Source: Octopus vulgaris
Lineage: Eukaryota
Direction of reading: 5' to 3'
Assembly (NCBI GenBank): GCA_951406725.2
Contig: OX597814.1
Location: 57,102,001 to 57,166,000, forward strand
DNA: 64,000 nt
Part shown: in pieces, positions 32,093-38,024 of the stretch
How the letters are laid out: every line of letters starts with the position of its first letter
Numbering within the stretch: the stretch's first letter is position 1
Made by a program: the position numbers and the translations under genes
The notes under the pieces: model-generated
What the model was told of the DNA's origin: nothing
Database searches by the model: none
What the model saw: the letters and a program-made list of their open reading frames with translations, nothing else

Positions 32093-32227
32093 CTTTAGAG
32101 CCCCTTCGCTGACATCAATGTTTTTCTTTTTGAGACCAATACTAAGTTCTTCAACCGACAAATTTCCATCCTTCGATGTATCAAGTCCATCGAAGATTGC
32201 TGCCCATTCTTGTTTTGATTGATTCAT
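32093..32227 (-). CDS. Alternative first coding exon 1B (EF1) of the calmodulin-like gene
   Basis: ATG at 32227, 135 nt. MNQSKQEWAAIFDGLDTSKDGNLSVEELSIGLKKKNIDVSEGALK, donor AAG|gttagt (phase 0), loop DTSKDGNLSVEE. Missed by the ORF track. Joining to exon 2 is inferred. Confidence 0.8.
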
Positions 32228-32340
32228 TTCTTATGTTATATTTTTAGAAAGAAAAACCTTAAGATGAGATAGTACAAGATTCACAAGAATCACAAGTTGC
32301 GTAGAAGTTGAGGTTGAACGTTCGTAACTTCTGCACTATG

Positions 32341-32373
32341 AACTGTGAACTAATGAAATTGTGTCATTATATA
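32341..32373 (-). promoter_or_regulatory. TATA (TATATAAT) plus Inr-like ACAGTT core promoter of exon 1B
   Basis: TATA at 32373-32366, CAGTT about 29 nt downstream; spacing conserved with exon 1C. Confidence 0.55.
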
Positions 32374-33227
32374 CCGCTACCGGTTTTTTTCTCTCCAATG
32401 ATTTCCTTGCGTATATGAGTGGTTTTGTAAGTGTATATATATCTACGATCTGTCAGTGAGCGCGTGTGTGTATGTGTGTCTGTGTGTGAAATTTCAGTAT
32501 TGCTTTTGGTATTGTTGTTTTATAAATTAAAACAGCACAATCAAATCTTCAAAAATGTACATTGATTATATTATCCCGATGTAGGTCGCACCCATCACTA
32601 CACATGTTCTCTCACACACTGTATACATGCACGCTTACCGCACATGCATATATGGGCTTACAATTACACACATAATACATACATACATACATACATACAT
32701 ACATACATACATACATACATACATACATACATACATACATGCAAACATATATTTCGCACACGGCCTTGACTCAAAACATCTCACGTATTTCAAAAGCAAA
32801 CTATATTTTAATTACACTTTTTAAAAGAACCCGATGAGTGCAATCTTTTGGTGAAACCCCTGTTAATAGATATTTGATAGAAAAAAGTTATGCAGCTTTA
32901 AGTGATGAAAAAAGTGATAATTTGTTGTTTCCAACTTTTACTTACTTGCGGCCAATTTAATGCTTTACCACTAATTAAGTTTTAGCTCAATCTTAATTCG
33001 ATTTATTGTGCTATAATGGACCATTTATAAGCTACATTTTGACATAAAATACTCGAAATTTGGTTCAGTAGAAAAAAAGTTATGATAAAAAGTGTAGGGC
33101 CAAATATAGGAAAGTGACGCCTAATATTTACTTTGATTCGTAATTTCTCAGTTATTTGAAAGAATATCTATACTTTAATTATGTCTGTTTAAAAGAACTC
33201 AATGAGTAGAATCTTTCGGGAAAGACC

Positions 33228-34560
33228 TCATGGGAGGCCTACCGTGTCCAGTTTGAACTATTGGCTGACCAGAATGGATTGGACGATGGGCAAAGAGCAG
33301 TTCAGCTTGCTACTAGTCTAAAGGGCGCTGCAGTAGAAGTACTGAGCTAGTTGACTGTAGAGGACAGAAGCTGTTCTCCTTCACTAGTGGCAGTGTTAGA
33401 GAGAAGATATGGCACTATGTGCTTAAGTGTACAGGGTACGATTTCGGGCCCGCATAAGGACTAGAAGAGAATCACTACAACAGCTTGCCCAGGAACTTTT
33501 GGCTCTTCTTCTGAAAGCAGTTCATCGACGCTTTGGGCAGTGCAGAGCTTAAAGTTCAAGTGAAGCAAGCACAGTCGAATACTATACAAGAGGCATTGGC
33601 GAGAGCTCTGGAATTTGAGTCGTATGTAAGGTCTAGCACAGGAAGATTTCAGGTGGACTACAGTTCCGGACTCAACGCAAAGAAGGGCAAGTACGTGAAG
33701 CAGGAAGATTTAATAAAAGTTGGTGGTATTGCGAAAAGGTCGGACATAACAGAGAAAGCTGTTTGAAGAAGAAAGAACAAGAGACGGTTGGAATATATTG
33801 TTGGCACTGTGGGAAGCCAGGACACAAGATGCAAGATTGTTACAAACTGAAGAGAGAGCAAAGGCAGAACAGTAGTAAAAAGTTCACACTTAGGAGAAAG
33901 TGTGAAACATGAGGTGAAAAGAGACTTCAGTTTTAACTGCCCTACACGAAATAAGGATAGTAAGAAGGTAACGAAAGACAAAGGAGAGTCGGAAAACTAG
34001 GAAGGAGCTGGTGTAAATGGGCAACCGCCAGCCGAATATTCCAAAGAAGCCCCAACTCCGAGAAGATGTAAAAAGGCTAATTGACAGCATATAAGTGGAT
34101 GGTAGAATTGACAACTAGAAGTGTCACCTTGTGATTGATTCGGCTTCGGAGCAGACTTTTGTGAGACCCGAGATGTCACAGCATCGAGACCTACCAGAGT
34201 TATCACGGCAGTTGTGCGGTGTTACCGGACAGTGTACTGAACTGAGAAGACCGGTTGATGTCCTGATTGAAGTTGTAGGACGAAATGTCGTGCTTCTAGT
34301 CTACGTGGTGGAGATGGAGTGTCTCTGTCTCTTGGTTTGGACTACTTGGCGACTATGGGGTGTCAATTGGACTTCTGCTCCATGAAGCTTCGGGTGAAAG
34401 AAAGATTAGTCCCTGTCAAGATGGTAAAGCAGACTATTGCTGGTGGTGAAGTGAAAGCGTTACGGACGATAGTGATCCCACCGAAATCGGAATTTCTACT
34501 CCAGTGTAGTGTGAAGCACCGTATTAACACAGGAGATCGTCGCCCAATCGAGAAACCGGC
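33228..34560 (+). mobile_element. Decayed Ty3/gypsy gag-protease region
   Basis: WEAYRVQFELLADQNG..RAVQLATSLKGAAVEVL..LERRYG, two CCHC knuckles (WYCEKVGHNRESC, CWHCGKPGHKMQDC) and protease-like VIDSASEQTFVRP..LGLDYL. Frameshifted. Confidence 0.8.
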
Positions 34561-35402: not shown

Positions 35403-35782
35403 ATATATATATATATATATATATATATATATATATATATATATATATATATATATATATATATATATATATATATATATATATATATATATATATATAT
35501 ATATATATATATATATATATATATATATATATATATATATATATATATATATATATATATATATATATATATATATATATATATATATATATATATATAT
35601 ATATATATATATATATATATATATATATATATATATATATATATATATATATATATATATATATATATATATATATATATATATATATATATATATATAT
35701 ATATATATATATATATATATATATATATATATATATATATATATATATATATATATATATATATATATATATATATATATAT
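35403..35782. repeat. About 380-bp pure (TA)n tract
   Basis: Read directly. Longest of many (TA)n, (TG)n and (TACA)n tracts; length may be assembly-dependent. Confidence 0.97.
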
Positions 35783-35799
35783 TATAGGCGTAATGTGTA

Positions 35800-36075
35800 G
35801 GTGCAATGGTTCAGTGGTTAGAGCAGCAAACTCGCGATCATAAGATCGCGGTTTCGATACCGAGACCGGGCGTTGTGAGTGTTTATTGATCGAAGACACC
35901 TAAAGCCCCACGTGGCTCCGGCACGGGTAGGTAGCGAACCCTGCTGTACTTTTTCACCGGCCATGGTTACGCGTGTCTGTGGTTTGCTCACCCATTTGCA
36001 CGTTAATTTCACGAGCAGGCAGTACCGTTGATTAGATCAACTGGTACCCTTGTCGTCGTAACCGACGGAGTGCCG
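35800..36075 (+). mobile_element. tRNA-derived SINE (second family)
   Basis: A/B-box head TGGTTCAGTGGTTAGAGC..GGTTTCGATACC. Related heads at 15690, 44475, 49218 and 57997, and on minus at about 16330, 56430 and 57270. Confidence 0.7.
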
Positions 36076-37889
36076 TAAAAATATAGGCATACCTACGGAT
36101 GTGTATCCCACCTGATTTTGTTGCTTCATAAGGTCCAGAAAAATGGATACTTTTTAACTAAATTTTCAACAAATACTGCTTAGATGTTCTAAATTTAGAG
36201 TATCCTGGGATTTGTTGCAAATAATGTTTGGAGAGAGAAGTGTTGGAAAATTCAAACGATCCGAATTTTTTCCCTTTTAACTTTCAGGAAAATGAGTATC
36301 TTTTAATGAAAGTTTATACAACTATCTTTCAAACGGCATAGATTACGATTATAAAGAAATTTTGGGTGGAAATTTTATCTGAGTGGATGGGGAGAGGAAT
36401 TTCGGATCAGGAAGTTTCCCCGTTTTGACGTGGATTTTCTCCATTTTTTATTTTTACCACAGCCTTCGGAATAATGGCGCTGATGCGGGGAGGGTACATC
36501 TTTTGTATGACAAAAAAGTTTATAAATGTTTTTATTACCCCCCACACACACACACACACACTCATCATCCCACTCCAGACCGGTTTTGCCATATTTTTTC
36601 TTTGCACTCTGAAACCATGCAAGCAGCCTATTCGGTAAAAAAAACAAACAATTGTAAATATTTTTCAGAGGAAAAAGTGTGTGATTTAAGGTTGTTGTTT
36701 CTAGCACATCCCAAGACCATACTCCTCGATTCTTTCTCACTCTCGCATGTATTGGTGTTTTTCAATATTTTTCTCTCCATAAGGCGGCGAGCACGCCGGG
36801 TGAACTGCTTACCAGTAATTTGTGTCTTTATGCCTGAGTTCAAATGCCGCCGAGGACGACTTTTCCTTTCATTCTTTCGGGGACGATAAATTAACTACCA
36901 GTTGAGTACTGAGGTCTAATCGACTGGCGCCCTCCACCAAAATTTCGAGTCTTGTGCCTAGAGTAGAAAAGAATATTTTTCTCCCCATCAACACATTTAT
37001 GTTATAAAAAAAAATTGAAAATTTATGAAATTTTTACAATTTAAAATATTGGAGAGTCTGATGCTTTTGTCCAGCAATTAAAAAAAAAGTTATGTAAGAG
37101 ATAATTCATTTTAATAACACTTTTCTGTAAGAATATGCTTTTTCTTACACACACAGACACACACACACATACACACACACACACACACACACACACACAC
37201 ACACACACACGGTCTCGATTGAGTGAGGTGGAGGTAAAAATTTTAATTGCTATTTTTTTTGCCACTTATACCCCACCAATGGACCACATGTGCGTTACTT
37301 CAGCATCATCATGTCATAAAATGTGTTTAATGAAGAAAAATAGTGTAAAACATGTGAAAAAAACATGTGAGAGTGAAAACGGAGTGCTAGAAACAACAGC
37401 CAAATCTCCTTTGAATCGCACACCTTTTCCTCCGAAAATATTTACAATTTTTTTTTTTACCGAAAAGACACCTCCCGTGGTTTTAAAGTGCAAAAAAATT
37501 GGTCAAAATCGGTTCGAAGTGGGATGGTGATAAGGGGAAAGTAATAAAAAATTTTCAAAACTTTGTTATAAAAAGATGCCCACCAATCCCATCATTTTGA
37601 AGGATTTGGTGAAAAAAATCTCCGTCAAAACGGTGAAATTCCAACTTATGAAAATTTTCTGGAAGTTATGAGGCAACAAAGTCGGTGGTGGAGTACACAT
37701 CTATAGAGATGCTTATATGTATATATACATATATGTATATATATGCACACATGCATACATATGCACATACATGCATACAGACCTACGAACACAGATTTTT
37801 TCACAGCCTAAGCTTGTGGAAGCTATTGTATATGGATGTGTTTGTGTGTTATGTATGCTTATTGTGTTAATCCAACTTAAATCACTAAC

Positions 37890-38024
37890 CTTTAGTGCCA
37901 TTTTGCTGACATTAATGTTTCTAGCTTTGAGACCAACATCAAGTTCTTCAACCGACAAACATCCATCCTTGTTTTTATCAATTTCATCGAACTTTGCTTC
38001 CCATTCTTGTTTTGTTAGATTCAT
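37890..38024 (-). CDS. Alternative first coding exon 1C (canonical EF1) of the calmodulin-like gene
   Basis: ATG at 38024, 135 nt. MNLTKQEWEAKFDEIDKNKDGCLSVEELDVGLKARNINVSKMALK, donor AAG|gttagt (phase 0), loop DKNKDGCLSVEE. Gives 140 aa if joined to exons 2+3. Confidence 0.83.

Follow-up and report, generated by a model that had tools for sequence, protein, structure and literature searches.

Genes with multiple variable first exons carry tandem duplicated first exons on common constant exons, and in such genes lineage-specific duplication is accompanied by positively selected codon sites and by gene conversion, as in Pcdh. An exon switch is also described for alpha-actinin, where the exchanged exon (19a or 19b) is internal and the protein is a conserved actin cross-linker, according to the part of PMC4550062 that deals with it. 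The red and green opsin genes are tandem duplicates under gene conversion whose coding divergence exceeds that of parts of the flanking non-coding DNA, as excerpted from PMC3924837. Calmodulin and centrin consist of four helix-loop-helix motifs in two lobes, and canonical molluscan calmodulins are given as 94-98% similar to human calmodulin in the relevant section of PMC6171432.

The gene described here is a calmodulin-like gene within 64,000 nucleotides of Octopus vulgaris chromosome DNA (contig OX597814.1, positions 57,102,001 to 57,166,000), the whole of which is referred to as the window. It encodes four EF-hands and has three first exons (1C, 1B, and 1A), which are tandem paralogues that each code for EF-hand 1 and all end at phase 0, together with shared exons 2 and 3 (Table 1), whose translation equals residues 46-140 of P0002. 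Listings of the openly accessible literature, also by accession, showed no paper on this gene.

Gene Structure and Use of the First Exons

Both 1B and 1C are transcribed and spliced to exon 2 in public contigs. A 719-nt contig of run X1 reads through 1B, and a 504-nt contig of run X11 through 1C, into more than 200 further letters starting with exon 2; in runs X4 (1B) and X13 (1C) these joints recur with shorter extensions of 28 and 20 letters, respectively. The two exons are also annotated isoforms in two species, and 1B is intact in three species and present in deep contigs, in line with the proposal of the first-pass annotation that both are in use. None of the listed public runs holding the exons is recorded as RNA, and a 1B orthologue was not found in run X17 (DNA-sized). 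Exon 1A is joined to exons 2 and 3 by annotation only. Ahead of each ATG, the 1B and 1C leaders follow the genomic sequence without a break, in contigs that do not reveal transcription starts. The first exons may have separate promoters. The real start of the 1C leader lies further upstream, the reads being cut at a repeat beyond 38159, and 1B contigs of runs X2 and X13 extend upstream past 32319. A low-depth loose end of run X4 upstream of 32319 matches neither the window nor 28 loci and is likely a chimera.

Only 1B appeared in runs X1, X4, X2, and X20 and only 1C in run X11, which does not establish tissue-specific exon choice. The runs are coded, contigs show presence only, and the absence of an exon from a run is no evidence because the 1B contig of run X13, which holds both exons, was missed once and seen later. 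That 1B and 1C are separate genes with their own downstream exons was rejected, as no exon 2 or 3 remnant is found within the window, and only two genomic matches to 1B were obtained among three candidates scored. A NUMT in intron 2 is unsupported.

Table 1. Positions of the gene's exons, leaders and paralogous blocks within the window.
Feature	Position	Strand	Remarks
Exon 1C coding part	37890..38024	-	45 codons, EF-hand 1, loop D-K-N-K-D-G-C-L-S-V-E-E; conserved copy; CAI9715179.1 / XP_029645601.1; 5/45 differences vs O. bimaculoides X2; joined to exon 2 in contigs of runs X11, X13
1C 5' leader, transcribed	38025..38158	-	contigs of runs X11, X13 span 37890-38157/38158 with 0 differing letters
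Exon 1B coding part	32093..32227	-	45 codons, EF-hand 1, S at loop position 3; fast-evolving copy; CAI9715180.1 / XP_029645593.1; 18/45 differences vs O. bimaculoides X1; joined to exon 2 in contigs of runs X1, X4
1B 5' leader, transcribed	32228..32319	-	contigs of runs X1, X4 end at 32319; 8/83 diverged vs 1C leader
Inverted repeat, 8 bp, inside 1B	32171..32195	-	exon nt 33-40 and 50-57; candidate template-switch event
Exon 1A coding part	13400..13549	-	50 codons, degenerate EF-hand 1; O. sinensis isoform X1 XP_036357478.1; annotation only
Shared exon 2	10571..10656	-	86 nt, phase 0 to 2, EF-hand 2; first bases equal the loose ends of the 1B and 1C contigs
Shared exon 3 coding part	6695..6896	-	EF-hands 3 and 4, stop; EF4 without D at loop position 1
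1B unit, part alignable to 1C unit	31881..32750	.	blastn blocks
1C unit, part alignable to 1B unit	37714..38680	.	blastn blocks
Old repeat remnant, intron below 1B	30284..31010	.	4.7% diverged (32/681) from twin below 1C
Twin of repeat remnant, intron below 1C	36384..37072	.	alignment to 30284..31010

The encoded protein is calmodulin-like, being built of paired EF-hands without any further domain (Pfam, where EF-hand families exceed the cut-off; Atlas neighbours). It is not calmodulin: canonical calmodulin has about 149 aa and >90% identity to metazoan calmodulin, whereas this protein has 140 aa and 25-29% identity. Judged against the EF-hand loop consensus, it also departs from a set of four canonical Ca2+-binding loops, as EF4 lacks its first aspartate and EF-hand 1 of exon 1A has neither an acidic nor an amide residue at loop positions 3 and 5. 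Between O. vulgaris and O. bimaculoides, 42/94 residues of the shared exons differ, and the earlier argument that rapid change here is unusual for the slow-evolving calmodulin fold consequently falls away. The name in databases suggests a kinase, which is rejected as Pfam finds no kinase domain. An AlphaFold model (6 sequences, pLDDT 78, pTM 0.56) has eight helices and came without coordinates for surface mapping.

Divergence Between Exons 1B and 1C

Exons 1B and 1C, both on the minus strand and both running for 135 nt from an ATG to a phase 0 end before a GT donor, differ at 25 nucleotides and 16/45 amino acids, with a single silent-only codon (43, GCT/GCA), no stop and no indel, exactly as first counted. 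The ATG, donor, W8, F12, and loop residues D1/D5/G6/E12 are indeed retained in both. The LSVEEL motif is common to both as well, but a change at loop position 3 (S18 in 1B vs N18 in 1C) had been missed. Six codons carry two or three differences, so that the Nei-Gojobori count of silent changes is 2.25 (range 1-3) rather than 1, and the 1B allele of run X13 has GCA at codon 43, leaving no silent-only codon with the X13 alleles. In neutral simulations, at most one silent-only codon arises in 5-12% of runs and at most 2.25 silent changes in 0.8-3.9%; the silent deficit thus exceeds chance, but only modestly for a pattern chosen after the fact.

The severity of the replacements is that expected under neutrality (mean BLOSUM -0.31, P = 0.38). 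Protection is confined to an invariant 9-position EF-hand core (P = 0.009) and does not extend to a 14-position set, where 4 have changed (P = 0.32). The coding exons contain no indel, compared with 2-16 gap events per flank block. Changes are not enriched in the target pocket, where 4/7 equivalent positions vary vs 17/37 others; the pocket residues are those we take to contact targets in calmodulin, mapped onto the octopus protein by alignment. Among eight difference clusters searched for template switching, one is supported: it looks like a single event at an 8-bp inverted repeat that accounts for 4/25 differences, a length reached by 1/78 alternative base combinations.

Maximum likelihood fits to the pair give omega values of 5.2-8.8 (dN/dS 5-9) with p between 0.007 and 0.043 in 14/14 fits, and p ≤ 0.003 in 14/14 fits with the alleles of run X13, the profile interval of the pairwise omega extending from about 1.1 to >100. 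The p value rises to 0.13 when multi-base mutations are freely allowed, and measured against contiguous flanks omega is 1.25-1.8 (p 0.08-0.40). The pairwise evidence from 45 codons alone is weak and marginal. These values bring in a quite improbable alternative, that a redundant 1B drifted at the neutral rate under relaxed constraint and that the silent deficit reflects a small sample, multi-base mutation and an after-the-fact choice of window. Besides that p value, the neutral-like BLOSUM profile and a pN of 0.22-0.23 that matches the flank divergence of 0.16-0.22 fit it, and multi-base mutations can mimic selection, as the pertinent part of 10.1101/165969 describes. It is contradicted by the intactness of 1B in three species and its presence in deep contigs, and by the comparison between species given below.

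Flanking DNA and Probable Gene Conversion

The 5' UTRs had been put at about 10% divergence, less than the coding exon. The estimate holds (8/83, 9.6%; 16/131 or 12% over a longer stretch), but the argument drawn from it does not, as other contiguous flanks are as diverged as the exon: 16-21% in the proximal intron (20/128), the 53 nt upstream (9/53), and the upstream flank (60/291, ranging over 10-24% depending on gap settings). The CDS and UTR do not differ significantly (25/132 vs 8/83, Fisher p = 0.08). Paralogous non-coding blocks overall are about 5-22% diverged and form a mosaic of low and high values (4.7% vs 15.6%, p = 3e-5). The UTR was dropped as a neutral yardstick, the flanks spanning 4.7-22%. 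The low divergence of UTR, silent sites and distal intron is likely due to gene conversion, and the distal intron block probably underwent conversion or was copied after the exons had duplicated. A recent transposon was rejected as the source of this block: of 7874 candidates 40 were scored, and no other long copy among these exceeds 83% identity (range 69-83%). Dating the duplication by this block (omega 6, p < 1e-4) was likewise dropped because the contiguous flanks are far older.

Conversion also suggests an unlikely alternative to positive selection, in which the exons are older than their flanks indicate, conversion erases UTR, silent, and intron differences, selection only preserves amino-acid differences, and 1B is weakly constrained, not accelerated. 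The non-coding mosaic agrees with it, as do the O. bimaculoides exons, which are identical at residues 1-12 and in which residue 2 groups exons by species. A second pair of first exons in the cluster, with 27 nt and 16 aa differences in 43 codons, a within-exon omega of 1.1, and flanks 8-9.5% diverged, points the same way and fits the 'peak of divergence' pattern as set out in the corresponding part of PMC3924837. Even without the flank clock, however, this null requires divergences of 0.46-0.49 between copies and 0.38-0.40 between species, more than the 0.10-0.245 implied by 13.3-34 My and a dS of 0.0036/My; it is still rejected (LR 13-21) and leaves unexplained the 18 differences between 1B-type exons that postdate the species split.

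Rate Asymmetry Across Species

O. bimaculoides likewise has two 45-codon first exons, which differ from one another at 13/45 positions (proteins X1 and X2), and its protein X1 shares L15 and S29 with 1B. Across the two species, 1B-type exons differ at 18/45 positions and 1C-type exons at 5/45 (Fisher p = 0.003; minimum dN 0.32 vs 0.06). With X2 as reference, 12 residues count as derived on 1B against one on 1C (p = 0.003). The same reference breaks the 2-nt changes at codons 11 and 22 into single steps, with M11 and S22 as intermediates. The two exons therefore evolve at different rates. Across five sequences 23/44 codons are invariant while four different residues occur at each of codons 22 and 38, a contrast at odds with relaxed constraint. 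The changes in the two species overlap at nine sites (p = 0.005), close to the 16 x 13 / 24 = 8.7 that shared constraint alone predicts.

Site models favour M2 over M1a (p 0.0003-0.002) with and without flank calibration, three M2 topologies being near-equal (lnL -350.2, -350.3, and -350.4). A clock model with flank-calibrated time places 41-47% of codons in an invariant class, with omega_B at 3.9-5.1 and omega_C at 0.6-0.7 (LR 13.2-25.7); the LR is 13.2-15.4 with free multi-base mutations and 20-32 if independent duplications are assumed, and 0/65 null simulations reach 13 (maximum 7.3). The null of omega_B ≤ 1 with free multi-base mutations is rejected, which further weakens the explanation by drift. 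This model, an implementation of our own, is calibrated on the most diverged flanks, a clock that may be too low if the flanks were converted or transcribed (the run X13 1B contig has 316 letters upstream), and its O. bimaculoides tips are proteins that add no silent sites. If the species divergence is set at 0.245, the rate of 1B between the species does not exceed the neutral one (P = 0.13). An omega above 1 on 1B, like the age and orthology of the duplication, is inferred from these models. Positive selection on 1B is probable on this evidence; the selection first proposed thus became likely once a second species was added, but not as a symmetric process on both exons, since the signal lies on 1B and 1C is under purifying selection.

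A further alternative, exon capture followed by compensation, is highly improbable. It holds that 1B and 1C of the O. vulgaris line lost their own exons 2 and 3 and were spliced onto those of the neighbouring 1A gene, EF-hand 1 then adapting to a new EF-hand 2. In its favour, exon 3 of O. bimaculoides resembles the cluster paralogues of O. vulgaris (52-57%) more than it does exon 3 of the window (49%), no O. bimaculoides 1A-type isoform occurs among 39 hits, and a neighbouring gene also couples a young exon 1 with older exons 2 and 3. Against this, an HMM scan finds no second exon 2 or 3 remnant between 1A and 1B, exon 2 has its best match in the O. bimaculoides counterpart (70% vs 50-59%), and O. 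bimaculoides X1 is itself diverged from X2, while O. vulgaris 1C has barely changed. Capture may account for exon 3, not for the asymmetry between 1B and 1C. Exons 2 and 3 of the neighbouring p1/p2 genes have pN about equal to pS (12 vs 4 changes), which is uninformative here.

Proposed Model and Implications

The reading favoured here, which as a whole appears reasonably likely, is that 1B and 1C are duplicated first exons, each supplying a swappable EF-hand 1 to shared exons 2 and 3. The duplication likely predates the split of O. vulgaris and O. bimaculoides; purifying selection would have preserved 1C, whereas roughly half of the 1B codons were likely driven by positive selection, and the isoforms would differ in N-lobe surface and calcium behaviour. 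Ca2+ binding by EF-hand 1 is predicted to be best in 1C, which has N at loop position 3, weaker in 1B (S), and absent in 1A, and the substitutions on the surface of helices A and B are predicted to alter partner choice. A broader and rather doubtful extension is a modular calcium sensor of the arms-race type, in which a promoter-selected EF-hand 1 cassette would be combined with recurrent selection on 1B that hits identical surface codons in different species, a C-lobe exon rebuilt in the O. vulgaris line, the same peak of selection against conversion in exon 1 of neighbouring genes, and a rapidly changing partner of the entire cluster, whether reproductive, immune, venom-gland, or sensory.

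If the favoured reading is true, the octopus would gain tunable versions of one calcium sensor, and the gene would be an invertebrate example of the variable-first-exon design, with one EF-hand as the exchangeable unit and a conserved twin that serves as an internal control. The 1B and 1C isoforms are only 16 residues apart on an otherwise identical protein, so that the effects of the selected changes on Ca2+ affinity and partners are directly measurable. The locus draws attention to an unstudied and rapidly evolving cluster of calcium sensors in the octopus and illustrates that, under gene conversion, UTR and dS can be misleading yardsticks; it leaves the conservation of calmodulin proper intact.

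Comparison With Known Systems

The octopus protein shares the two-lobed arrangement of calmodulin and centrin and aligns colinearly over residues 7-138; unlike calmodulin, it is fast-evolving, has polar or charged residues at the positions equal to calmodulin L18 and L39, and lacks the first aspartate of EF4. Relative to alpha-actinin, the exchanged exons are first exons of a stand-alone protein, exist in three versions and show rapid amino-acid change, with Ca2+ differences that are only predicted. Relative to the red and green opsins, silent divergence within the exon is low, not raised, and one of the copies continues to diverge from species to species. The gene resembles those with multiple variable first exons in its tandem, lineage-specific duplicates on common exons, its probably selected codons, and its probable conversion. 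It differs from them in being invertebrate, in having only three exons and fast-evolving 'constant' exons, and in that its variable unit is one 45-codon EF-hand, half a lobe, and not a whole substrate-binding or extracellular region.

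Structure and transcription of the alternative first exons

The calmodulin-like gene, in a window located at G000:C1:57102001-57166000, is read from the minus strand and encodes a product of 140-145 aa with four EF-hand motifs and no further domain; three further genes of the family lie at most 120 kb upstream. The isoforms themselves are not new, as the NCBI annotation already contains O. vulgaris proteins for 1B (CAI9715180.1) and 1C (CAI9715179.1), and the O. sinensis RefSeq isoforms X1, X2, and X3 use 1A, 1B, and 1C, respectively; no paper on this gene came up in listings of the openly accessible literature. 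EF-hand 1 is encoded by each of the three first exons. At position 3 of its loop, a Ca2+ ligand position, 1C has N, 1B has S, and 1A has K.

Features of the gene, its 1B/1C flanks, and its surroundings (window positions unless a locus is named)
Feature	Position	Strand	Description
Exon 1C	38024-37890	-	135 nt; ATG start, GT donor end; first in gene order
Exon 1B	32227-32093	-	135 nt; ATG start, GT donor end; second
Exon 1A		-	third
Exon 2	10656-10571	-	fourth
Exon 3	6896-6695	-	fifth
Distal intron block			4.7% diverged (32/681)
Leader			9.6-12% diverged
Proximal intron			15.6% diverged (20/128)
Further flank block			17% diverged (9/53)
Upstream flank			~21% diverged (60/291; 10-24% by gap setting)
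Tandem units, 1B-1A intron	21547-23373, 25856-26783		362 bp, five copies, 99.7-99.8% alike; inverted arms 137-139 bp; older 86% copy
Open frame, very AT-rich intron 2	8004-8276	+	weak GIY-YIG hit that misses the cut-off (E 0.02)
Broken gag/protease-like text (by eye)	33230-34760	+	between 1B and 1C
(TA)n run	35401-35783		~380 bp, between 1B and 1C units
Neighbour first exon	L015:737-865 (G000:C1:57226737-57226865)	+	calmodulin-like gene
Neighbour first exon	L020:7207-7335 (G000:C1:57283207-57283335)	-	calmodulin-like gene
Paralogue exons 2-3	L009:7642-7827, L010:795-878		90-95% identical to those of L015

For 1B, two of four sequencing runs (X1, X4) have matching contigs that run on into the opening bases of exon 2, and contigs from two of four (X11, X13) equal 1C with zero other letters before passing into exon 2, with only the X1 and X11 contigs extending more than 31 letters past the joint. 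The runs are presumed, as a guess, to be RNA, and because the exon 1/exon 2 joints are absent from the genome, the contigs represent spliced transcripts. Both exons are thus transcribed, and both are present in run X13. The 1B of X13 carries H at codon 38, as in O. sinensis, and GCA at codon 43, identical to 1C, so the sole silent codon is a late change in the O. vulgaris line. At window position 32319, a low-depth X4 contig departs from the genome into 384 unrelated letters, for which no match was found in the window or 28 loci.

Among the other features of the window, the open frame in intron 2 is possibly a decayed Penelope-like element, and a NUMT reading of this intron was checked and found without support. 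The gag/protease-like text is likely an LTR-retrotransposon remnant.

Divergence between 1B and 1C

The counts first reported for the pair were reproduced (25 nucleotide differences, 16 of 45 amino acids changed, and one codon differing only silently). Six codons differ at two or three sites, and counting by mutational pathways therefore yields 2.25 silent and 22.75 replacement changes, with dN/dS of 2.8-4.3 depending on kappa and a Fisher p that ranges over 0.003-0.22 with the treatment of multi-hit codons. So few silent differences (Sd ≤ 2.25) arose in 0.8-3.9% of neutral simulation runs; 16 amino-acid changes from 25 nucleotides are ordinary (66-81% of runs). Pairwise maximum-likelihood codon models (own code) gave omega of 5.2-8.8 with p of 0.007-0.043 in 14 of 14 fits and a profile interval from ~1.1 to >100; p fell to ≤0.003 with X13's two alleles, and a three-tip fit gave omega 5.1 (p = 0.037). 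With double and triple mutations left free, p rises to 0.13 (0.013 with the X13 alleles); multi-base mutations are a known cause of false positives (10.1101/165969). A four-base cluster in 1B, which completes an 8-bp inverted repeat (1/78 base combinations; eight clusters examined), may be one event.

The neutral yardstick at 1B/1C is a mosaic, the paralogous non-coding blocks being heterogeneous in divergence (p = 3e-5). The argument that the UTRs have diverged less than the coding exon consequently fails, since it relies on one of the least diverged flanks. The distal intron block is an old repeat. Its other long copies show 69-83% identity (40 of 7874 candidates were scored), which suggests that the pair at 1B and 1C was homogenised, or arose by local copying, later than the duplication. 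Against contiguous flanks, exon-wide omega is 1.25-1.8 and not significant, while a two-class site model is significant (p = 0.006-0.02, 2 df).

Asymmetric evolution of 1B and 1C in comparison with a second species

O. bimaculoides has one gene with two 45-codon first exons, XP_052825938.1 (X1) and XP_052825944.1 (X2). 1C differs from X2 at 5 residues (minimum dN 0.06) and 1B from X1 at 18 (minimum dN 0.32; p = 0.003). If X2 serves as the reference, 1B carries 12 derived residues and 1C carries 1, and at 3 more positions no two of the three exons agree. L15 and S29, common to 1B and X1, favour a duplication older than the species split; the site model did not discriminate between tree topologies. 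The exons cluster by species at residue 2 and over residues 1-12, suggesting 5' conversion. In a set of five sequences, no variation occurs at 23 of 44 codons, while codons 22 and 38 each show four residues.

The split is placed at 13.3-34 My ago, with dS of 0.0036/My, in published accounts (PMC10700109, PMC13282606); by our arithmetic, this gives a neutral divergence of 0.10-0.245. When a clock model took the age of the duplication from the most diverged flanks, which may themselves be constrained or converted, 41-47% of codons came out invariant and the remainder had omega of 3.9-5.1 on 1B and 0.6-0.7 on 1C. Compared with omega ≤ 1, the likelihood ratio statistic (LR) was 13.2-25.7, free multi-base mutations included, in an analysis resting on our own code, protein-only tips, a clock, and X13 alleles as stand-in for the second species. 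Assuming independent duplications, LR was 20-32. In simulations under the null (65 runs with omega_B = 1 and 14% multi-base events, fitted in slightly simplified form), LR was at most 7.3. Set beside these values, relaxed constraint together with chance is judged quite unlikely.

The shared exons 2-3 differ between the species at 42 of 94 residues (minimum dN 0.38), a rate equal to that of 1B (p = 0.71), so that 1C, not 1B, stands out in the gene. With an identity of 25-29% to calmodulin structures as well, the description of a slow-evolving calmodulin fold does not apply. If exons 2-3 are orthologous, their change outpaces the neutral rate also at d = 0.245 (P = 0.002), though hidden paralogy may be present. 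Exon 3 has a long branch in O. vulgaris (derived residues 10 vs 1, 10 vs 0, and 9 vs 4 relative to O. bimaculoides, with three paralogue outgroups), which may reflect acceleration or capture from a paralogue; that the first-exon changes compensate for exon capture we consider very improbable.

Neighbouring genes of the cluster

The first exons in L015 and L020, a pair not hand-picked, differ at 27 nucleotides and 16 of 43 residues. Their flanks are 7.9% and 9.5% diverged, and the proximal upstream DNA is nearly identical (~9 mismatches in the nearest 390 columns, by our count). Omega is 1.1 inside the exon and 2.6-3.5 relative to the flanks (p = 4e-5 to 0.007); the coding exon is the divergence peak. 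This is consistent with selection resisting gene conversion (PMC3924837), and it shows that selection and conversion are both at work in the cluster. Selection-filtered conversion without acceleration is a rival reading for 1B/1C, judged rather unlikely. A search of L009-L024 brought up no exon 1 to match the L009/L010 paralogue, which would be a partial duplicate or a gene with a diverged first exon.

Proposed mechanism and relation to known systems

The most likely reading, held with reasonable though not high confidence, is that promoter choice would pick the version of EF-hand 1 that pairs with EF-hand 2, with 1C retaining the ancestral role and 1B repeatedly re-tuned. Variable positions lie at the N-terminus and the helix A end, at loop positions 2, 3, 7, and 11, along a single stretch of helix B, and in the linker. 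In an alignment with calmodulin, four of them match pocket-rim positions, without enrichment there. The 1B changes are predicted to alter Ca2+ affinity and partner. By analogy, the octopus gene would work like the vertebrate variable-first-exon clusters (PMC1885805) and the alpha-actinin EF-hand exon switch (PMC4550062).
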